Under the pieces are notes generated by a model, which saw only the letters and a list, made by a program, of their open reading frames with translations, was not told the origin of the DNA and did no database searches. A stretch of DNA of 30,963 nucleotides, taken from positions 1 to 30,963 of the IMG/VR virus record IMGVR_UViG_2548876954_000010; one strand, 5' to 3'. Both the position numbers and the translations under genes were made by a program. The stretch is from a virus (lineage: Duplodnaviria > Heunggongvirae > Uroviricota > Caudoviricetes). Positions within the stretch are counted from its first letter, which is position 1. The number at the start of each line of letters is the position of its first letter. This document shows, one piece after another, positions 51 to 10,411 of the stretch.

Positions 51-172
51 TAACAGGATGTCGCTTAAGCGAAACCTTAGTTAAGACGCTCCTATTAACA
101 CCCCATAACAAACAAACACTTACCATATAAAACAATTAGTTAATGCAATTTTTAATGCAGTGAATTGCAGCG

Positions 173-1222
173 TTACGCAACCTCTGCCGCCACGTTGTCG
201 CCAATACACAGTGACAACGGATTCAAGGTGACAGCTTGTTCAAGATGGTCAGGAGCAAAGTGCGCATACTTCATTGTTTCACGAATATTTGCGTGACCGA
301 GTATCTTCTGGAGTACAAGGATATTGCCGCCATTCATCATAAAATGCGCGCCAAAGGTGTGACGTAAAACGTGCGTTTTCTGCCCTTCAGTCAATTCAAT
401 GTTTGTGAGTTTGAGCATCTTCTTAAAGTCCTGATAGCAGGGCTTGAACATTCTTCCCTGACGTTCGGACAACTCGTCATACAGCCATTTAGGAATCGGA
501 ACCGTGCGATTCTTCTTACCTTTGGTTTTGGTGAAAGTCAGCTTGCAGGGGGAAAGTTGGGGACGTGTAAGTCTCTCAGCTTCTCCCCATCGTGCGCCAG
601 TAGCCAGGCACACCTTAACAATCATAGTAAGATTTTCTTTGCCATATTGTTCACAGGCTCGGAACAGCTCCGGGAGCTGAGACAAAGTTAGCCAGGACAT
701 TTCTTTCTCAGCTTCTTTGAATACACGAATCCCGTCCAGTGGATTGGGTAAACTCCATTCACCTAATCGCCGCAGTTCATTGAACACAGCTTCGAGGTAT
801 TGCTGTTCGCGATTGACAGTTATAGGTTTGGCGATCCATTTCGCCGGGTCTTTGTGATAGCCGTTGTCTATTTCGCCACGTAATCGACGGTCACGGTAAT
901 GAGCCCAATCTTTAGCGGTAAGACGAGATGCAATAGGGTCGCCCAACCCGTTACATACAATTTGAAGCTTAGCTAACCGCGACTTACTGGCGACCAACGC
1001 CTGTCCATGTAAATTATGCCAAAGCTGGATAATCTCACTTAAGCGTCGGCGGTCTTCTTTCTTGCCGAGCCACGGCTTATCTTCACTCTCGCTTTTCGTA
1101 AATGCTTCGAATGCCTCGGCCTCACCTTTGGTATTGAATTGCCGACGTATTCGCCGCCCTTCTCGCCCATTAGGATAAAGCTCACATAACCATTTGCCAT
1201 TTTTTTGCTTACTTATAGTCAT
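173..1222 (-). CDS. int: Tyrosine-recombinase integrase (P2/186 type)
   Basis: Minus-strand ORF; translation has the C-terminal catalytic region typical of phage integrases (ATGARWGE, HVLRHTFGAHFMMNGGNILVLQKILGHANIRETMKYAHF). Start chosen at internal MTISKQ (ATG at 1220-1222) with GGTGA RBS just upstream, rather than the ORF-track start at 1270. Position next to the repressor fits P2/186 layout. Confidence 0.9.
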   Translation of the reverse strand: MTISKQKNGKWLCELYPNGREGRRIRRQFNTKGEAEAFEAFTKSESEDKPWLGKKEDRRRLSEIIQLWHNLHGQALVASKSRLAKLQIVCNGLGDPIASRLTAKDWAHYRDRRLRGEIDNGYHKDPAKWIAKPITVNREQQYLEAVFNELRRLGEWSLPNPLDGIRVFKEAEKEMSWLTLSQLPELFRACEQYGKENLTMIVKVCLATGARWGEAERLTRPQLSPCKLTFTKTKGKKNRTVPIPKWLYDELSERQGRMFKPCYQDFKKMLKLTNIELTEGQKTHVLRHTFGAHFMMNGGNILVLQKILGHANIRETMKYAHFAPDHLEQAVTLNPLSLCIGDNVAAEVA

Positions 1223-1244
1223 AATGTCACCGAGGCAACTCTTA

Positions 1245-1583
1245 TCATTCGCAAAGTGCTGTCGCAGCATCCATTACGGGATCCAAAGGAATTTTTACTC
1301 CTTCATAATCCGGGCTATTTTTCCAAACAGTATCAATATCGCTCCCCTCAAGCTTTCCAGACTTTACACCATCAATAGCAAACCCATTTAATGGGTATCG
1401 GTCATCTGTTGCTTTGTCGTACACAAAGGCATATCTACCATTAACACAAGACACCGTAGCTTTTTCAAAAGTTAACGGCCAATCATCACCAAACTTAGCA
1501 CCGTCTAAATCCTGTGTTTTTTCAGCGGCTGATGCACCGAAAGAAAGTGAAAGAAATAAAGCTAAAAAAAGCTTACGTTTCAT
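1245..1583 (-). CDS. Small secreted/periplasmic protein of unknown function (moron between repressor and integrase)
   Basis: Start at MKRKLFLALFLSLSFGASA, a classic signal peptide with AxA cleavage motif, with AAGGGA RBS 4 nt upstream. AT-rich relative to the late genes. P2 itself has no gene between C and int, so this is an insertion in my recollection of the canonical layout. Confidence 0.6.
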   Translation of the reverse strand: MKRKLFLALFLSLSFGASAAEKTQDLDGAKFGDDWPLTFEKATVSCVNGRYAFVYDKATDDRYPLNGFAIDGVKSGKLEGSDIDTVWKNSPDYEGVKIPLDPVMDAATALCE

Positions 1584-1591
1584 AATGTCCC

Positions 1592-2428
1592 TTATACGTG
1601 TTTTTCCAATGTGAAAATTACAGCACCTACTGGTGTGATATCTGTAATGCTGCATTCAAACTCGGCAGACTTATTTGACAACCTGACTTTTCCGCCGGGA
1701 AGACGAATTACATCAAAAACATCAAGAGCGCCGTCAATATCAATTAACCAACGCCCATTACTTATGTTCGAAGCAGAACGGTTGACAAGCCAAGAGGCTC
1801 CAACACCTTCAACAAAAATCAACTCCTCTGAGTCAGAGGGTATCATCGAGGGGTCTGGATGCCATTCGCCAGCGTCCTTAAGCTCACCCGCTTCAAGGCG
1901 AAATTTTTTAATTGAAAAACTTGATGTGACCATTTCTCTGTTAGTTCGCATTTGCCCCTTGCCGGTTGCTAACCATTCCAGCGAAACACCAGTATCAAGG
2001 GCACAAGTAACAACTACATCGCCTGGGAAAAAATCACGCCGAACCCATGTGCTAATTGTTCCAGATGATATACCGAGTAAATCACCCAGCTCCTTTTGCA
2101 TAGAAAAACCGTAAGCATCAAGGATGCGTCTCAGAACAGGTTTACCACCTGAAGCCATGACCTTTTCATAAAGCTCTTTGCCCTTCAGGGTCGCACGTGG
2201 AGAGTTTGCTTTTGCAAGCTCCCCTGTCACTAACCATCCGATATCTGCGCCCGTTTCAATAGCACATTCAACAAATACATTGCCCGGAACGCTATCTCTG
2301 GCAAGCCAACTGCTTATGTTGTTGGCATAAATACCAAGTTTTTCGCCAAGTTCTTTTTGCGAGCTAAGTCCATAAGCCGAAAGGATTCTTTCGATAGCCG
2401 GAGCCGCACCATCTCCAAATTTAGCCAT
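1592..2428 (-). CDS. CI-type immunity repressor with tandem-duplicated N-terminal HTH domains
   Basis: 278 aa. Two consecutive copies of the same motif (ERILSAYGLSSQKELGEKLGIYANNISSWLARDSVPGNVFVECAIETGADIGWLVTG and RRILDAYGFSMQKELGDLLGISSGTISTWVRRDFFPGDVVVTCALDTGVSLEWLATG), followed by a ~120-aa C-terminal domain. Divergent from the apl/cII operon and upstream of int, as for a 186 CI-type repressor. Confidence 0.8.
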   Translation of the reverse strand: MAKFGDGAAPAIERILSAYGLSSQKELGEKLGIYANNISSWLARDSVPGNVFVECAIETGADIGWLVTGELAKANSPRATLKGKELYEKVMASGGKPVLRRILDAYGFSMQKELGDLLGISSGTISTWVRRDFFPGDVVVTCALDTGVSLEWLATGKGQMRTNREMVTSSFSIKKFRLEAGELKDAGEWHPDPSMIPSDSEELIFVEGVGASWLVNRSASNISNGRWLIDIDGALDVFDVIRLPGGKVRLSNKSAEFECSITDITPVGAVIFTLEKHV

Positions 2429-2548
2429 GTATCGCCACCAAAATTAATTTTCGCCATTGCAAAATTAAATTTCGCGAACTAAAGTGATGATTATCAACCA
2501 CGATGCACATCAATGCAGTTCACTACAAACAACAGGAGATAATGCGAT
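2429..2548. promoter_or_regulatory. Lysis/lysogeny switch region between repressor and apl-like gene; candidate rightward promoter
   Basis: 120-bp AT-rich spacer between divergent gene starts. Candidate rightward promoter: -35 TTGCAA (2457-2462), 17-bp spacer, -10 TAAAGT (2480-2485). AGGAGA RBS at 2534-2539. P2/186 switches use face-to-face promoters (established for the family); the exact positions here are inference. Confidence 0.4.
2439..2476. promoter_or_regulatory. Two direct repeats (putative operator / Apl-Cox box pair)
   Basis: CAAAATTAATTTTCGCC (2439-2455) and CAAAATTAAATTTCGCG (2460-2476), 15/17 identical, start-to-start spacing 21 bp (two helical turns), overlapping the candidate -35. 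Confidence 0.45.
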
Positions 2549-2920
2549 ATGTCAGATGCAAAATCAATCTCGACGCATGATTCGCAAAACTCACAAAATC
2601 AAACTGTGCTGTTAGATCCGGCTCAGTTTGATGCCATCGTTACCGCTATGCTGCCAGCTCTGCAGACAATGATCCGCTCCGCTATGTCAGACACAATGAC
2701 AGTGAAAGACTTTGCCGCCACTCGCGGTGTAAGCGAGCGTCTGGTCTGGCAATGGCTTGATGAGGGAATCCTCCTCAAAGCTCCAACTAAAGACTTTTCC
2801 AACAAGGAAGAGGCTGGAAAACGAAGCCGCACCCTCGTAAACGTGAAAGCATGGCGCGACAAACTAACCCAGCAAGCGATTGATTGTCGCTACATCGACC
2901 ACCGCATCGCTCTTAACTGA
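2549..2920 (+). CDS. Apl/Cox-like excisionase / transcriptional regulator (HTH)
   Basis: First rightward gene of the switch, strong AGGAGA RBS. Contains an HTH-like segment MTVKDFAATRGVSERLVWQWLDEGIL. Position matches apl (186) / cox (P2). It is longer (123 aa) than 186 Apl as I recall it, so the function is by position and motif only. Confidence 0.55.
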   Translation: MSDAKSISTHDSQNSQNQTVLLDPAQFDAIVTAMLPALQTMIRSAMSDTMTVKDFAATRGVSERLVWQWLDEGILLKAPTKDFSNKEEAGKRSRTLVNVKAWRDKLTQQAIDCRYIDHRIALN

Positions 2921-2952: not shown

Positions 2953-3462
2953 ATGTTTGATTTTCAGATTTCTAAACATCCTCACTATGACGAAGCGTGC
3001 CGGGCTTTTGCGCAGCGTCACAACATGGCGAAGCTGGCCGAGCGTGCGGGTATGAACGTTCAAACGTTACGTAACAAGCTCAACCCAGAACAGCCTCACC
3101 AATTCACACCGCCTGAATTGTGGCTGCTGACTGACCTGACCGAAGACTCAACCCTCGTTGATGGCTTTCTGGCGCAAATACATTGTCTGCCATGCGTGCC
3201 GGTTAATGAGCTGGCTAAAGAGAAATTGCAGTCTTATGTGATGCGCGCAATGAGTGAACTCGGCGAACTGGCGAGCGGTGCGGTATCAAATGAACGTATG
3301 ACCTCTGACCGCAAACACAGCATGGTTGAGAGTGTTAATGCAGGCATCCGCATGTTGTCTCTGTCGGCGCTGGCGTTACAGGCGCGTCTACAGGCTAACC
3401 CGGCAATGTCGAGCGTGGTTGATACCATGACCGGCATCGGCGCAACATTTGGTTTGGTATGA
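2953..3462 (+). CDS. cII: CII-like lysogeny-establishment regulator (186 CII family)
   Basis: Start at MFDFQISKHPHYDEACRAFAQRHNMAKLAERAGMNVQTLRNKL (ATG 2953, AGAGGG RBS). 169 aa, and the sequence closely matches my recollection of coliphage 186 CII. Second gene of the rightward early operon. Confidence 0.8.
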   Translation: MFDFQISKHPHYDEACRAFAQRHNMAKLAERAGMNVQTLRNKLNPEQPHQFTPPELWLLTDLTEDSTLVDGFLAQIHCLPCVPVNELAKEKLQSYVMRAMSELGELASGAVSNERMTSDRKHSMVESVNAGIRMLSLSALALQARLQANPAMSSVVDTMTGIGATFGLV

Positions 3463-4488: not shown

Positions 4489-6711
4489 TTGGCTGTTCAA
4501 TTCGCTTATCCGTGGAATGCTCCACGATCGGCTATAGCCAGCCCATACCTTACTTATAAGCAACAGCATCGCCGCGACCGTATGTTCGCGGCGATGCTGC
4601 ATGCTAAAAAGGTGCTTTCTCTCCAGCCCGACTGCGTGCGGTTAGATGTTTATCGCACTGCGGCAGTGCTGGAGCAAAATCAGGGCATTCAACGAGCCAA
4701 TGCCTTTTTGATCAGCTTCTGCAAAAAGGCATTGCCGCGTCTTGAATTGGTCGCAAAAAAATACGAATGCGCGGGTATCAACAGCAAGGTATCAACCTCT
4801 GTTTTTGGAAGTCATTTTGATACCCAGCTTATGCAATATCTGGCGTCACGCATGGTTAATATGGTCGCCCGATATAACCGCCTCCCGGATATGTCGCGCG
4901 CTGATGTTGACCTGTTGGCCGCCGATATTGCTAATTTCATTCGTGGTGAACTTGCCAACATTAATGACCACGGATTCGGCGAGCTTAAAACGCTGTACAC
5001 CTGGTATAATCGTGCTGGCTTTATTTCCCTCCAGTTCAACGTTATCCCCCCCCATTGGGATCGGGTTGCAAAAAAATATGTTGGCGCGGATGAAATCGCA
5101 CCGGCTATCGCCAAGATGTTTAACGATGGGTGGTGGCGTGGTCGTTTGCGCCGGGTTGCAGCTACGTGGCGCGAACACCTGCAAATTGCAGTCGGCAACG
5201 TCAGCAAGAAAAAAAACACCTATGCGAGTAAAAACTGCGTGACTGACTGGCGTGAACAAAAGCGCCGAACTCGTGAATTTCTCAAAGGTCTGGATCTCGA
5301 AGACGAAGACGGCAACCGTATCAGCCTGATTGAAAAATATGATGGCTCAGTTGCTAACCCTGCGATTCGCCGCTGTGAGCTCATGACTCGCATTCGTGGG
5401 TTTGAAAACATCTGTAATGAGCTCGGTTATGTCGGTGAGTTTTACACTCTGACCGCGCCGTCGAAATATCACGCCACGACTAAAGCCGGTTACCGTAACA
5501 GCAAATGGAGCGGTGCCAGCCCGGCTGACACGCAAAACTATCTAACTGATATCTGGGCGCGTATCCGTGCCAAACTGCATCGGGAAGATGTCCGTATTTT
5601 CGGTATTCGTGTCGCCGAGCCCCATCACGACGGTACTCCACACTGGCACATGCTGATGTTCATGCTGCCGGAAGATGTTGAATATGTTCGCTCCATCGTC
5701 CGTAAATACGCGTGGAAAGAAGACCGCCGCGAACTGAAAAGCGATAAGGCAAAAAAAGCACGTTTCCACGCCGAGTCCATTGACCCGGAGAAAGGCAGCG
5801 CAACCGGCTATGTTGCTAAATACATATCAAAAAATATCGACGGTTATGCTCTCGATGGTGAAACCGATGATGAAAGCGGTGAACTGCTGAAAGAGACAGC
5901 CCCCGCCGTTTCAGCATGGGCTTCGCGCTGGCACATCCGTCAGTTTCAGTTTATCGGTGGTGCGCCGGTGACGGTTTACCGTGAGTTGCGTCGCCTCGCT
6001 GATACCGAAACCGCGCACGGACTGAGCGTTGAGTTTGCCGCCGTCCATGATGCCGCCGACGCTGGTGACTGGGCTGGTTATGTTAATGCGCAGGGTGGAC
6101 CGTTTGTCCGTCGCGATGATTTACAGGTGCGCACACTGTATGAACCACGTACCGAGCTTAATCAGTACGGTGAGGAAACGGTATGTATTAAGGGGGTCTA
6201 CGATTCCTCCATAGGTGCAGGTAGCCCGATTTTAACCCGGCTCACTCAGTGGAAGATTGTTCCGAAGCATGCTGTTGATTTGGCCGTTGACCTTCAGGAC
6301 GGCAAAGCCGTCCCTCGGAGTTCTGTCAATAACTGTACGGGAAGCGAAAACGCTCCACCGGTACTGGATTTGACAAAGCCCCTGAGTCGACGCGAAAGAC
6401 GAGAGCTAACCAACCGACTCAGGAAGCAAAAATCAGCAATACGGCGAAAGTTCAGCCACGGAACGGATGAGCAAAACGCAGCTATAGCTAAAACTATCGA
6501 CGAGATACAACTGACAACCGGCATTACAATCAGCCGGAGCGAAGCCCTGCACCTGATGGCCGGTGGTAAAAGTTGTTTTGATGGCAAATGGCTACGCGGA
6601 ACGGCCAAAGGGGAAATATTTTCCGCAGCACCATCGCATGAGGCTAAAGCTCGGAAAATCCTTAATCGTGTTGCGGCGATGGCTGAATCATCAAAACCAA
6701 CACATGAGTAA
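4489..6711 (+). CDS. A: Rolling-circle replication initiator endonuclease (P2 gpA family)
   Basis: 740-aa ORF. Contains the HUH-like motif region (EPHHDGTPHWHMLMF) and paired tyrosines in GYVAKYISKNIDGYAL. Codon at 4489 is TTG; the first in-frame ATG is at 4582, so the exact start is uncertain. Confidence 0.9.
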   Translation: MAVQFAYPWNAPRSAIASPYLTYKQQHRRDRMFAAMLHAKKVLSLQPDCVRLDVYRTAAVLEQNQGIQRANAFLISFCKKALPRLELVAKKYECAGINSKVSTSVFGSHFDTQLMQYLASRMVNMVARYNRLPDMSRADVDLLAADIANFIRGELANINDHGFGELKTLYTWYNRAGFISLQFNVIPPHWDRVAKKYVGADEIAPAIAKMFNDGWWRGRLRRVAATWREHLQIAVGNVSKKKNTYASKNCVTDWREQKRRTREFLKGLDLEDEDGNRISLIEKYDGSVANPAIRRCELMTRIRGFENICNELGYVGEFYTLTAPSKYHATTKAGYRNSKWSGASPADTQNYLTDIWARIRAKLHREDVRIFGIRVAEPHHDGTPHWHMLMFMLPEDVEYVRSIVRKYAWKEDRRELKSDKAKKARFHAESIDPEKGSATGYVAKYISKNIDGYALDGETDDESGELLKETAPAVSAWASRWHIRQFQFIGGAPVTVYRELRRLADTETAHGLSVEFAAVHDAADAGDWAGYVNAQGGPFVRRDDLQVRTLYEPRTELNQYGEETVCIKGVYDSSIGAGSPILTRLTQWKIVPKHAVDLAVDLQDGKAVPRSSVNNCTGSENAPPVLDLTKPLSRRERRELTNRLRKQKSAIRRKFSHGTDEQNAAIAKTIDEIQLTTGITISRSEALHLMAGGKSCFDGKWLRGTAKGEIFSAAPSHEAKARKILNRVAAMAESSKPTHE

Positions 6712-6785: not shown

Positions 6786-6805
6786 TACTGTATAAATATA
6801 CAGTA
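6786..6805. promoter_or_regulatory. LexA (SOS) box overlapping a candidate promoter
   Basis: TACTGTATAAATATACAGTA is a near-perfect match to the E. coli LexA consensus (CTGT-N8-ACAG, palindromic). Candidate -35 TTGCCA lies upstream; a GGGAGGGA RBS and ATG at 6825 follow. Confidence 0.75.
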
Positions 6806-6824: not shown

Positions 6825-7007
6825 ATGGTTGGCGAACATTGCAGCCGAACGCAGCAAAAGTGGGCTTGTGTGCAATTTATTGCCGAGGTATCTCTGATTG
6901 CAAACTGCAAGCCATCAGACTTAAAGCTCGCGCTCACTCTCATTGCAGACCTAGCAAACAGCGAAAATAACGAAACCGAAGATGATAATTTTTATAAGGC
7001 TGATTAG
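6825..7007 (+). CDS. LexA-controlled small protein; possibly the N-terminal part of a Tum-type antirepressor
   Basis: 60-aa ORF with a strong RBS (GGGAGGGA, spacing 4) 20 bp downstream of the LexA box. It is followed within 3 bp by a dinI-like reading frame. 186 Tum is an SOS-induced antirepressor whose C-terminal part is DinI-like (recollection). Confidence 0.45.
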   Translation: MVGEHCSRTQQKWACVQFIAEVSLIANCKPSDLKLALTLIADLANSENNETEDDNFYKAD

Positions 7008-7312: not shown

Positions 7313-7440
7313 TAAGTCCTGCCTTTCAAAATTTCTCAATGTGCTATTGATGACACGCCCATGATTAATGAGGCATGACCTGAGATAGTTTTATAGTGGC
7401 GTTTTGACGGCACTGATTAAAATTCATTGAGGGTGATAAT

Positions 7441-7650
7441 ATGCATCGACTACCAGGTGAAATTCCGCATCACAAAACTAAAAGCATCAAACTGATGGCC
7501 ATCGTTCATCGTCTGCAGCAGATAATGGTCAATGAGAATTTGACACCCACAGAGCTGGTCGGGTGTGCCGAAATAGTCAGGGATAATTACGGCAAGCTGG
7601 ATAGCATCAGCAGGCCGACACAATACGCCCCCCCACCACGTCGACGATAG
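7441..7650 (+). CDS. Hypothetical 69-aa protein
   Basis: ORF with a good RBS (GAGGGTGA) and ATG at 7441. Lies between the two copies of the hairpin-plus-box motif. No recognisable motif. Confidence 0.45.
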   Translation: MHRLPGEIPHHKTKSIKLMAIVHRLQQIMVNENLTPTELVGCAEIVRDNYGKLDSISRPTQYAPPPRRR

Positions 7651-7663
7651 CAAACGTCGTCAA

Positions 7664-7718
7664 GCGCTGAAACTCGCTTTCAGTGCTGACGGGGTTGAAC
7701 AACGAGCCACGCGAGGCG
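7664..7718. repeat. Copy B of the composite hairpin-plus-box motif
   Basis: Hairpin GCGCTGAAA-ctcgc-TTTCAGTGC, then tGACGGGGTTGAACAACGAGCCACGCGAGGC. The stem differs from copy A at paired positions (AA/TT in A versus TG/CA in B), so base-pairing is preserved. Confidence 0.5.
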
Positions 7719-8150
7719 TTAGTTGGTTACCTGATTGACACCGAGCGAAAGCAGGTTTGTCACCGCACCGGCAATAACTCCGGGTGTCCCGTCTTTCACC
7801 GCACTGATAATCTTATCGCCCAGCGTTTCATTACCGCCGAGTGCCTCGGGCTTTTTGTTGAGCACGGCGAGTGCTTTCTCGGTCAGGCGCACATCCCGAA
7901 AATAAGTCTGATTGTCTGTTTCATACTGGATGTAGCCGTTTTCACTGAGAAAAGTGAATGTACCCTCAACCACACTACGCAACTGATTCAGTGCTTTCAT
8001 TTCCGGTGAGTTAAGTTGGTCAAAGTAGTCATCAGGTAGCGCGGCGTTAAATTTTTCGTAGGTGATGACCTGCGGCACCGGGAAGTTATCCCATAACACC
8101 GCAAAAATTTCCGCCGTCTGCTGATTAAATAATTCGAGGTTTTTGGACAT
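7719..8150 (-). CDS. Hypothetical 143-aa protein (orphan gene in the A-to-cos accessory region)
   Basis: Minus-strand ORF with AAGGGA RBS upstream of ATG (8148-8150). Ends immediately beside motif copy B. No motif I can assign. Confidence 0.55.
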   Translation of the reverse strand: MSKNLELFNQQTAEIFAVLWDNFPVPQVITYEKFNAALPDDYFDQLNSPEMKALNQLRSVVEGTFTFLSENGYIQYETDNQTYFRDVRLTEKALAVLNKKPEALGGNETLGDKIISAVKDGTPGVIAGAVTNLLSLGVNQVTN

Positions 8151-8340
8151 GCATAATTCCCTTTCATCGATAGACCCGTTTGCCGATTGGGCAAAAAAGC
8201 TGACCGTAATGGCTTCAAATAACGACCTGAGTTCTCGTGAGGTGGAAAGCTACACCGAAAAAATGGTCGAGCAAGCCAGTAAAGATGAGCTTACGGTCGT
8301 TATCAAACACCTGTTAAACCACATCAGAATGCACAAATAA
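8143..8340 (+). CDS. Hypothetical small protein (65 aa); weak call
   Basis: ORF whose start overlaps head-to-head with the start of the 143-aa minus-strand gene. RBS is poor at 8143. A terminator follows at 8481-8505. May be spurious or start internally. Confidence 0.3.
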   Translation: MDMHNSLSSIDPFADWAKKLTVMASNNDLSSREVESYTEKMVEQASKDELTVVIKHLLNHIRMHK

Positions 8341-8480
8341 AATGATCTATATCAATATGTTATCTCTCGTTTATGAAAATCGGTGGACGACGATTTTTCT
8401 GCTGATTTTTGACAGCATGTGCCTCAATAGTGTTATTGGCGCATTACGCGGCCAGTAATCGCGCCAAAACCAGCCCCAAA

Positions 8481-8505
8481 CCGGCACCGTGAATGCCGGT
8501 TTTTT
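8481..8505 (+). terminator. Rho-independent terminator
   Basis: Stem CCGGCA (8481-8486) / TGCCGG (8494-8499) with a 7-nt loop, followed by TTTTTT (8500-8505). Confidence 0.55.
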
Positions 8506-8662
8506 ATGCCATTTTTCCGCGATTTCCCCGTTTTAGCCGTGCATGCAACAGGTGCATGGTTTTGCATTCGCAGGGGTTGCCCGTTCTGACCGTGCGCCGC
8601 CAGAGCTGGCGCGGATCCCGAGAGTTCATGCAACTGCATTAAAACCGCCCCGTAAAGCGGGC

Positions 8663-8681
8663 AGGCGTGGCGGGGAAAGTA
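8663..8681. other. cos: cos site (cohesive-end sequence) of the P2/186 family
   Basis: ggcgtggcggggaaagtat followed by tgcgcgctg matches my recollection of the P2 left end (GGCGAGGCGGGGAAAGCAC TGCGCGCTG...) and the 186 cos. It sits in a GC-rich hairpin-dense ~250-bp segment between the A-side accessory genes and the portal gene, where the permuted prophage map puts cos. Confidence 0.6.
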
Positions 8682-8796
8682 TTGCGCGCTGGATCATAAA
8701 CGATTGCTTACTTTGAAGAAAATAGTGTGCTTATGAACTGCAAACTTTATACAATCAGAATTTGCCGAATCTCTTTTTTGATGAATAAGGGTTTTT

Positions 8797-9624
8797 ATGA
8801 CTGGTGTTGTGAATTACGATGTGGTTATCAGGAGTGGTGATCAGCCCGTTGATATGGATTATGCGCTGGAAACGTTAGGCGGAGCATCGGAAGTTACCTG
8901 TTTACTAGCAGAAGCAATCCTACAAAAAAAAGTCGTTAAAAGAAGAAGTCCTGCTAATAAAGCGCGAGCAGTTTTACATCAGAGCTTCCCGAGTTCTTAT
9001 GGACAAAACTTTGCGTTAGCTATAGATGACCCAATATTAAAAGCTCGTTTAGTTGAAATAACCAACCCTGTACTTGCGGAAATTATGGGATTTTACATAT
9101 CTGAAGCTATGTATATACAACCTCCGGCTTTATCAGCACGAGCCAGACATTATATTGAAGAGCTTGAATATCTTGAAGATGAAATTATAAGCCGTATTCG
9201 GAATCCTTTAATACGCATGCACAAAATTAATTACCGTCGCAACTGGGATATTGATTTCAATTTTAAACCTGATGGTAGACAAAGAAAAATAGTGACTTTA
9301 AATACTAGGACTGCAGCAAATCTAACTCACACAACGGTTGAAAGGGAAAGATTTAATATAATTGCAATGGTTACAAGATTCAACTCTCGTACAGGTAATG
9401 GCCGTTTAGTGCTACAAGATGAGGACGAGACTGTTGCTTTTGGTTTTGCCAACCAATTAGGAATGGTTCCGTCCGCACAGAAAAGAATGATTTCTTTGAA
9501 TCTACATAATAATAATGGAAGATCCGATAATTACATATATCTTAGTATGACTGTCAGTAGGGTTGTAATTATGAGCGGTGAGACTGTAAAATATGCAGTA
9601 CACTCTGTGCGTGTATTGGAATAA
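8797..9624 (+). CDS. Hypothetical soluble 275-aa protein, first gene of an AT-rich two-gene cargo cassette
   Basis: ORF with AAGGG RBS. Markedly AT-rich compared with the flanking phage backbone. No TM segment or catalytic motif I can recognise. Its stop (9622-9624) is 2 nt from the next start. Confidence 0.7.
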   Translation: MTGVVNYDVVIRSGDQPVDMDYALETLGGASEVTCLLAEAILQKKVVKRRSPANKARAVLHQSFPSSYGQNFALAIDDPILKARLVEITNPVLAEIMGFYISEAMYIQPPALSARARHYIEELEYLEDEIISRIRNPLIRMHKINYRRNWDIDFNFKPDGRQRKIVTLNTRTAANLTHTTVERERFNIIAMVTRFNSRTGNGRLVLQDEDETVAFGFANQLGMVPSAQKRMISLNLHNNNGRSDNYIYLSMTVSRVVIMSGETVKYAVHSVRVLE

Positions 9625-9626
9625 GT

Positions 9627-10376
9627 ATGAATAGAATTAAGTGCATATGTGGGTTGATACTAGCTGCTGCTTGGGCAGCGTACTATCTTCATTTTGGCAT
9701 AGACGGAAGCCTCTCCCAAAAAACTGAAGTTTGGGGACAGTTTGGCGACTACGTAGGTGGGGTGGTCAACCCCATTTTAAGTTTTATAACCATATATCTA
9801 CTTATTAACTCAATAGGGTTACAGCGCGAATCTAATGAAAGCTTAACCAATGAAATAAAAAGACAAGAGAAGCTAGAGGAATATAAAAAATTTGAGCTAC
9901 GATTCTTTCGCTTGATTGAATCGCAGGAGGAAAACTTCAGTCGTTTTAAAATATGTATATCACAACAGGATGATGATGAGCAAAATGTTGATGAACAGTT
10001 AGAAAAAACAGATGAAATATTGAGTGGTGGAGCAGCAGTAACATTCATTGAAGATTGTTTGTTACCCCTCAAAGAGGCTGGAGTTAGCAAGGAGCGTGTA
10101 TTCCATTGGTTAGATAGTTTGGATGATGATGGATCATTTTTTTCATTAGTAAGACGTTTCTATCTCATTCTCAAATTAGTCGATGCCAATACACTTACAA
10201 AAAGCGAGAGAGATGAAATGTATGAAACGTTGATTAATCTTACTGATATTAAAGTAATTAGCATCATTGCAATCTTGAGTTTGCATTATGATTGGTACGC
10301 AATCAAATACATTAAGGCAACAAAAATTCTTGACAAGGAAGGAGTTAGGGAATTCGTTGAAATGTATAAAATTTAA
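9627..10376 (+). CDS. Hypothetical membrane protein (two N-terminal TM helices plus acidic cytoplasmic domain), second gene of the cassette
   Basis: N-terminus has two hydrophobic helices (ICGLILAAAWAAYYLHF and VGGVVNPILSFITIYLLINSIGL). The rest is charged and Asp/Glu-rich. AT-rich, closely spaced after the upstream gene, followed by a terminator. Confidence 0.7.
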   Translation: MNRIKCICGLILAAAWAAYYLHFGIDGSLSQKTEVWGQFGDYVGGVVNPILSFITIYLLINSIGLQRESNESLTNEIKRQEKLEEYKKFELRFFRLIESQEENFSRFKICISQQDDDEQNVDEQLEKTDEILSGGAAVTFIEDCLLPLKEAGVSKERVFHWLDSLDDDGSFFSLVRRFYLILKLVDANTLTKSERDEMYETLINLTDIKVISIIAILSLHYDWYAIKYIKATKILDKEGVREFVEMYKI

Positions 10377-10411
10377 TTGTGAAAATTTACAGTCAATTCA
10401 TGGCGATCGGT

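Follow-up and report, generated by a model that had tools for sequence, protein, structure and literature searches.

Paired direct repeats over the predicted pR promoter of a PSP3-like prophage as a putative operator of a tandem-HTH CI repressor

Results

Organization of the prophage and its switch region

The DNA analysed here, a stretch of 30,963 bp that we refer to as the window, represents a 186/PSP3-like (Eganvirus) prophage that is nearly complete. The pair of repeats under study is located between the repressor gene and the rightward operon, which are separated by a gap of 120 bp, and the features that bear on it are given in Table 1.

Table 1. Features of the window around the predicted switch, with their positions, strands and remarks
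Feature	Position	Strand	Remark
Candidate Apl-like sites beside int (ATGCAA, ATGCAG, TTGCAG repeats)	143-169	+	12 and 10 bp spacing; just past int 3' end; candidate att-arm sites
int	173-1270	-	
DUF2511 gene	1245-1655	-	between int and cI, on cI strand
CI repressor	1592-2428	-	278 aa
CI C-terminal domain, 186-type	1604-1912	-	aa 173-275
CI HTH domain 2 (dom2)	1964-2146	-	aa 95-155
Immunity cassette	2147-2481 (about)		335-bp divergent block; alignment with SEN1, SW9 and Midge
CI HTH domain 1 (dom1)	2225-2407	-	aa 8-68
Likely cI ribosome-binding site GGTGG	2435-2439	-	from reading of the sequence
Candidate operator unit 1	2439-2455	+	CAAAATTAATTTTCGCC; ends 1 nt ahead of the pR -35 box
Predicted pR -35 box TTGCAA	2457-2462	+	aligns with TTTACA kept in 11 related groups; layout as in the annotated pR of phage 186
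Candidate operator unit 2	2460-2476	+	CAAAATTAAATTTCGCG; shares 3 nt with the 3' end of the -35 box and occupies the spacer
Predicted pR -10 box TAAAGT	2480-2485	+	17-nt spacer; alignment with related groups
Candidate Apl-like sites in the switch (ATGCAC and ATGCAG direct repeats)	2503-2518	+	10 bp apart; between predicted pR and pL
Predicted pL for cI	2539-2567	-	-10 CATTAT 2544 to 2539; -35 TTGATT 2567 to 2562
Apl/Cox-like gene	2549-2920	+	123 aa; first gene of the rightward operon
cII (PF06892)	2953-3462	+	
Replication gene A	4489-6711	+	
LexA box CTGTATAAATATACAG	6788-6803		perfect; upstream of the TumA-like ORF
TumA-like ORF	6825-7007		60 aa; 96.7% identical to PSP3 TumA

The repressor matches PF07022 (Phage_CI_repr) in two stretches with an E-value of 3.4e-48 and PF16452 (Phage_CI_C) with 8.7e-21. 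The structure of the phage 186 CI (PDB 2FJR) aligns to residues 97-271 only (E 1.8e-25), and hence we consider the protein to be an entire 186-type CI preceded by an extra HTH. The AlphaFold model, built with 27 homologues, has three folded parts (aa 8-68, 84-155 and 173-275), while the linkers 71-82 and 159-169 are of low confidence and leave the interdomain arrangement undefined (pTM 0.40).

We collected 126 related loci with tandem-HTH CI proteins from named phages, from one genome per species and from IMG/VR, and divided them into 16 groups by their dom1 sequences. The mean pairwise identity across the 16 groups is 0.56 for dom1, 0.84 for dom2 and 0.46 for the C-terminal domain. The recognition helix of dom2 reads SSGT[IM]STW[VI]RR in 15 of the groups, and ASGTMSAWVRR in the remaining one (L038). 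A survey of P2-like switches from 2011 describes the PsP3 CI as longer than that of 186 and the PsP3 Apl analogue as a singleton (PMC3448106). Within our incomplete coverage of the literature we found no report on operator binding by a PSP3-type or tandem-HTH CI.

The repeat pair and its copies

The two 17-bp units were found both by reading of the sequence and by a repeat finder. They differ only at positions 10 and 17 (15 of 17 identical), and their starts are 21 bp apart. The match can be extended to 16/20 when 2439-2458 is compared with 2460-2479. Of 5000 shuffles of the 120-bp intergenic region that preserved its dinucleotides, one contained a direct repeat of 15/17 or better at a spacing of 17-35 bp (P ~2e-4), and the pair is the sole repeat of such quality in the whole window. 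The core of unit 1, AAAATTAATTTT, is a perfect 12-bp palindrome. Unit 1 usually ends with ...TTTTTGCC in the 12 relatives of the same immunity, which brings the repeat identity to 14/17 there. Position 2452 is a C in the window and a T in most of these 12 relatives.

A degenerate 17-mer search gave no other convincing copy of the unit in the window. The matches at 9222 and 23737, with 3 mismatches each, lie within ORFs; these two and those at 10369 and 12526 were considered as FL/FR or pB-like sites, and all four were judged to be chance matches as they are weak and inside ORFs. The late-activator promoter falls outside the window. Near 2100-2200 and 2900-2960, where weak or dom2-type sites are possible, we found no distal FL/FR-like copies at 3 mismatches or fewer.

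Third units adjacent to the pair were also considered. The candidate to the left of unit 1, CCAAATTTA...TATCGCCA (2415-2437), is 21 bp away; it is not convincing because it needs a 4-nt insertion and overlaps with the first cI codons, which are common to SW9. It lies over the cI start codon and could represent a third, weak operator, or else the likeness may be imposed by the shared MAK... coding sequence. The segment 21 bp to the right of the pair (2481-2497) matches the unit at 5 of 17 positions only.

Predicted promoters of the intergenic gap

A standard promoter scan gave nothing at threshold, and the pR boxes of the window match the consensus at 8 of 12 positions; pR was therefore located by conservation. 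We found TTTACA-17-TAnAnT at the same place in the gap of 11 related groups. With the boxes so aligned, unit 1 ends just before the -35 box and unit 2 overlaps this box and fills the spacer, the pair as a whole being 11-48 bp from the cI ATG. The first-pass annotation had reported two 17-bp direct repeats of 15/17 identity with 21 bp spacing that overlap the candidate -35 of the rightward promoter. The repeats are borne out by the reading, the repeat finder and the shuffles, and the overlap also holds, with the position of the promoter now set by the motif kept in the 11 groups.

The predicted pL would be convergent with pR, and its position relative to the apl start is the same as that of the annotated pL of phage 186. 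All the groups have a CACC on the left of unit 1, which would be accounted for by the likely cI ribosome-binding site, GGTGG on the minus strand. The TGCGAT at 2543-2548 on the plus strand stands directly before the start codon of the apl-like gene and overlaps the -10 box of the predicted pL. The TGCG at this position is retained in nearly all groups, even in those with a different N-terminus of the Apl-like protein. It could be a CI (dom2) site at pL, or a mere promoter or translation signal.

The repeats vary together with the first HTH domain

Comparison with the heteroimmune phages SEN1, SW9 and Midge, which are otherwise 80-100% identical, gives identities of 13-73% per 30-nt bin in about 2147-2481 and mostly 70-100% in the flanks. 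This sole divergent block comprises CI residues 1 to about 94 and continues through the gap as far as the -10 box. Each sister group has its own unit pair at the same place with a spacing of 18-23 bp, i.e. ACTCAAAATCGATT and ACTCATTTTCGATT in Midge (21 bp), CTACAGATAATTTT and TTACAGATAACTTT in SEN1/PSP3 (22 bp), and CAACAAGAATTTTG and CAACCAAAATTTAG in SW9 (18 bp). Across the groups, the upstream unit is closer to the spacer unit of its own group than to those of the other groups (permutation p = 0.0003). SW9 has the dom1 recognition helix closest to that of the window (HANNVSSWLARN versus YANNISSWLARD in the window), and its units are also the most similar ones. From the comparison of sequences, this is how an immunity operator and its reader would be expected to behave.

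As the cassette consists of dom1 plus the operator region and the unit pairs are specific to the groups, the repeats are very probably the immunity operator, i.e. the landing sites of the immunity repressor of the prophage. The earlier proposal that this site is the immunity operator and sets the immunity specificity has thus gained ground: the pair is the best candidate for this role, as it lies in the only divergent block and shares this block with dom1. The site would then define the immunity type of a group of prophages in Escherichia, Enterobacter, Klebsiella and Citrobacter. We found the cassette of the window in 3 of 5426 complete E. coli genomes. None of the named phages in the collection searched carries it, the best match being SW9 with 70% over part of it, and no isolated phage in this collection has the immunity type of the window.

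The Apl-like protein and the ATGCA repeats

The Apl-like protein belongs to phrog_3554 and has a weak match to phrog_575, annotated as 'Cox-like excisionase and repressor' (E 1.6e-4). It has no Pfam match, a sequence search of the PDB was negative, and its single-sequence structure model is poor (pLDDT 53). SEN1-type and Midge-type phages, which carry repeats with no relation to those of the window, have this protein at 95-98% identity, which indicates that the 17-mers are not its specific sites.

Same-strand pairs of ATGCA at 9-12 bp occur three times in the window, two on the plus strand (2503/2513 and 143/155) and one on the minus strand, while the shuffles give 0.2 pairs. The TTGCAG at 165 extends the 143/155 series beside int, and the same WTGCAR series is present beside int in SEN1 and PSP3. 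The repeats at 2503-2518 are conserved as ATGCAC/CTGCAC in the relatives. The Apl sites of phage 186 are direct repeats one turn apart that occur in two places, at att and in the region between pR and pL (PMC7498355), and the dual placement of the ATGCA repeats, on the int side and between the two predicted promoters of the switch, mirrors these sites. We consider both of these sets of ATGCA repeats as the likely sites of the Apl-like protein. The 17-mers are unlike Apl/Cox (RDF) sites in that they are two turns apart, are missing near int according to the 17-mer search, and vary under a constant Apl-like protein.

Discussion

Candidate CI operators over pR

The best explanation of our data, and one that we regard as probable, is that the two units are adjacent operator sites over pR for the prophage's own CI, which would be read by the variable dom1 of this tandem-HTH protein. 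With unit 1 abutting the -35 box and unit 2 in the spacer, CI on these sites would keep RNA polymerase away from pR, so that the lytic operon would stay off and superinfection immunity would result. The unit sequence would set the immunity type because it is proposed to be read by the variable N-terminal domain. The spacing of 21 bp, or two turns, would place both units on one face of the DNA, as for neighbouring subunits of the 186 CI oligomer, if the CI of the window forms such an oligomer. The site is best described as a predicted operator that belongs to an uncharacterised variant of the 186 switch.

The units could also be symmetric operators. Unit 1 can be written as the two arms CCAAAATT and AATTTTCG and unit 2 as GCAAAATT-A-AATTTCGC, near-palindromes with 7 of 8 arm pairs each, and the direct and inverted scores are equal in the window (12/14 each). 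The apparent direct repeat would then be two neighbouring palindromic operators two turns apart, each bound by two copies of the same HTH from a CI dimer as in 186, with one domain contacting both arms. Clean dyads are indeed found in the pR spacer for the single-HTH 186-type repressors (Xenorhabdus, Photorhabdus and 186) and for several tandem-HTH groups; the Kosakonia, Serratia and L038 groups have the perfect spacer dyads AATCGCATTTGCGATT, TCGCATTTTGCGA and ATCCATATGGAT, which fit symmetric binding better than a reading by two different domains. However the half-site spacings would have to differ by 1 bp between the two units, the second HTH domain would be left without a role, and AT-rich sequence readily yields pseudo-palindromes. 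In addition, the closest heteroimmune sisters, SEN1, Midge and SW9, have asymmetric units whose direct similarity is significant while the inverted one is not, the left and right parts being clearly different. The CI model has no fixed domain arrangement and so cannot choose between the direct and the dyad reading. Judged from the sequences, the tandem-HTH family spans both forms and the window is ambiguous between them, and we consider symmetric operators as possible but unlikely for this prophage.

We give very little credit to two further explanations. The repeat region would be transcribed from the predicted pL, and AAAATTAATTTT, at about -52 to -41 of pR, is similar to the UP-element consensus. 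Unit 1 might hence be an UP element of pR accompanied by a chance or local duplication, or the region might form an RNA structure in the cI leader, with no protein operator at all. This seems the most improbable of all the explanations considered: a chance origin is unlikely (P ~2e-4), every heteroimmune group has its own unit pair, and a copy within the promoter spacer, as the second one is, cannot be an UP element. The predicted fold of the cI leader is not better than those of shuffled sequences (z = -0.95), and no Rfam family matched the leader.

The other explanation, that the units are P2-style direct half-sites at which a C-type repressor and the Apl/Cox-like protein compete, builds on the premise of the first-pass annotation that recognition here is of the P2 type (C repressor, Cox, Apl); this annotation also had the Apl-like protein as a possible ligand of the repeats. 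The P2 C repressor does use two direct repeats, 22-34 bp apart and flanking the -10 or the -35 (PMC1904268), to which the 21 bp around the -35 in the window are similar, and Apl binds direct repeats as well (PMC7498355). But the repressor of the window is a 278-aa 186-type CI, with PF07022 twice plus PF16452 and with matches to CI families only, and not a P2 C of ~100 aa, so that the premise fails. Binding by the Apl-like protein is also unlikely, since it remains 95-98% identical across unrelated repeats and the ATGCA repeats are better candidates; it is these, at 2503/2513 and 143/155/165, and not the 17-mers that show the Apl-type pattern of repeats one turn apart that are also present at att. 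We consider competition of this kind as highly improbable.

A possible division of labour between the two HTH domains

For the reading as CI operators that we prefer, we favour a bipartite arrangement in detail. Each unit would be ~20 bp long, with a group-specific left part, CAAAATTAA, read by dom1 and a right part, T-rich plus CGA (TTTCGCGAAC; family consensus TTTGCGATC), read by the nearly invariant dom2. Dom1 would cover CAAAATTAA, and dom2 would cover TTTCGCGAAC or TTTTCGCCAT. The units would repeat directly because one polypeptide would occupy each asymmetric unit. Under this arrangement we would expect that CGCGAA / CGCC matter for the binding, and not AAAATTAA alone.

The family-wide TTTGCGATC element next to the -10 box corresponds in the alignment to the right end of unit 2, TTCGCGAAC (2470-2478). 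In the related loci (L001-L045) the TTtGCGAtc abutting the -10 box is conserved about as well as the promoter hexamers, and the window has a weaker copy, TTCGCCATT, which abuts the -35 box. We know of no need of RNA polymerase for a sequence of this type beside the -10 box. TTtGCGAtc is kept in groups with different dom1, with unrelated Apl-like proteins and with unrelated downstream DNA. Being kept despite unrelated Apl-like proteins, it tracks dom2 and not the Apl-like protein, and it is possibly the site of the invariant second HTH domain. This suggests that the units are bipartite, with a variable left part for dom1 and a constant right part for dom2. L041 is an exception to the link between dom2 and GCGAT, as it keeps the dom2 helix but lacks GCGAT. 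L038, the sole group with a changed dom2 helix, has GGATCA instead of GCGAT, which is suggestive although it is a single case (n=1). Dam (GATC) regulation through GCGATC was considered as a general explanation and was dismissed, as the window and several groups read GCGAAC, GCGATT or GCGAAT.

The conservation of dom2 may also have to do with induction. The upstream tum gene of PSP3 is reported to encode an antirepressor (PMC3121763, citing a personal communication), and the TumA-like ORF of the window is 96.7-98.3% identical to PSP3 TumA and to its counterparts in the named phages, across all four of their heteroimmune groups. An antirepressor common to several immunity types has to act on a part of CI that is constant among them. 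Dom2 is the obvious candidate for the target of TumA, which could explain its conservation with or without a role in reading DNA. We tentatively propose, with rather less than even confidence, that PSP3-type CI proteins are split-function readers in a single chain: dom2 would be frozen because it reads the invariant half TTTGCGATC and/or docks TumA, while the added dom1 would carry all immunity specificity and would be swapped as a cassette with its operator half.

If CI is split in function in this way, heteroimmune phages would stay inducible by one common SOS signal, and the asymmetric direct-repeat operators on a 186-type oligomer would be its visible consequence. The family can be regarded as a natural experiment in the evolution of repressor specificity, in which one HTH and an operator half are exchanged together on a constant background of second HTH, oligomerisation scaffold, excisionase-like regulator and antirepressor. 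Reading by two domains, if true, would extend the wheel model of 186 and would give modular, orthogonal repressor-operator pairs; if it is false, we would simply have predicted the operator of another 186-like prophage.

Comparison with known systems

The prophage resembles phage 186 in its CI, with a PF07022 HTH and a PF16452 oligomerisation domain, in the gene order int-cI/apl-cII, in the placement of the candidate operators by the cI start and over pR, and in the use of a LexA-controlled antirepressor instead of self-cleavage. In the annotation of 186, the CI operators extend from the beginning of cI over pR and have the same location with respect to the cI start as the units of the window; the three operators at pR of 186 are two DNA turns apart (PMC3675496). 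The two systems differ in that the 186 CI has a single N-terminal HTH, whereas the CI of the window has an extra variable one at its N-terminus, and the 186-equivalent HTH (dom2) is frozen across the immunity types of the family. Phage 186 has the distal sites FL and FR about 300 bp away in addition to the three pR sites, whereas two units and no distal copies were found in the window. The operators of 186 are clean dyads while the nearest relatives of the window have asymmetric or direct units, and the operator sequences are unrelated.

The nearest known relatives are PSP3, SEN1 and SW9 of Salmonella and Midge of Escherichia, whose tandem-HTH CI proteins are 73-77% identical to that of the window overall and near identical in dom2 and the C-terminal domain. 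They share the Apl-like protein, cII, TumA, the pR and pL layout and the presence of two units on pR, and differ in dom1 and the unit sequences, which would make them another immunity type. We found no published operator mapping for the PSP3, SEN1, SW9 or Midge switches.

The likeness to the P2 C systems (P2, P2 Hy dis and WPhi) lies in the two direct repeats about two turns apart on an early promoter, those of the window being 21 bp apart and bracketing the -35. The P2 C operators are repeats of 8-10 bp, 22-34 bp apart from centre to centre (22 bp in P2), which differ between heteroimmune relatives, and the repeats of P2 Hy dis flank the -35 box (PMC1904268). In contrast, the units of the window are 17-20 bp long, and its 278-aa CI with two HTH domains is from a family unrelated to the C dimers of ~100 aa. 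The same paper separates the C and CI repressor types (PMC1904268).

A parallel to the bipartite arrangement is offered by regulators outside the phages of this type, although these have no homology to CI and serve as an analogy only. In the AraC/MarA-type two-HTH proteins and the POU proteins, two HTH modules tethered in one chain recognise asymmetric sites of ~17-20 bp, which frequently occur as direct repeats. PMC9723621 may be consulted alongside this comparison of bipartite HTH readers.

Other genes of the prophage

The DUF2511 gene is YebY-like with a signal peptide, is conserved in PSP3, SEN1, SW9 and Midge, and is a lysogen-expressed accessory gene. A stretch at about 7400-10400, flanked by the replication/tum region and the portal-side genes, has ORFs whose matches are confined to PHROG families of unknown function. 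It is AT-rich at 9100-9400 and includes the ORFs 8797-9624 (275 aa) and 9627-10376 (249 aa, with a membrane-like N-terminus), and may represent accessory or defence cargo.
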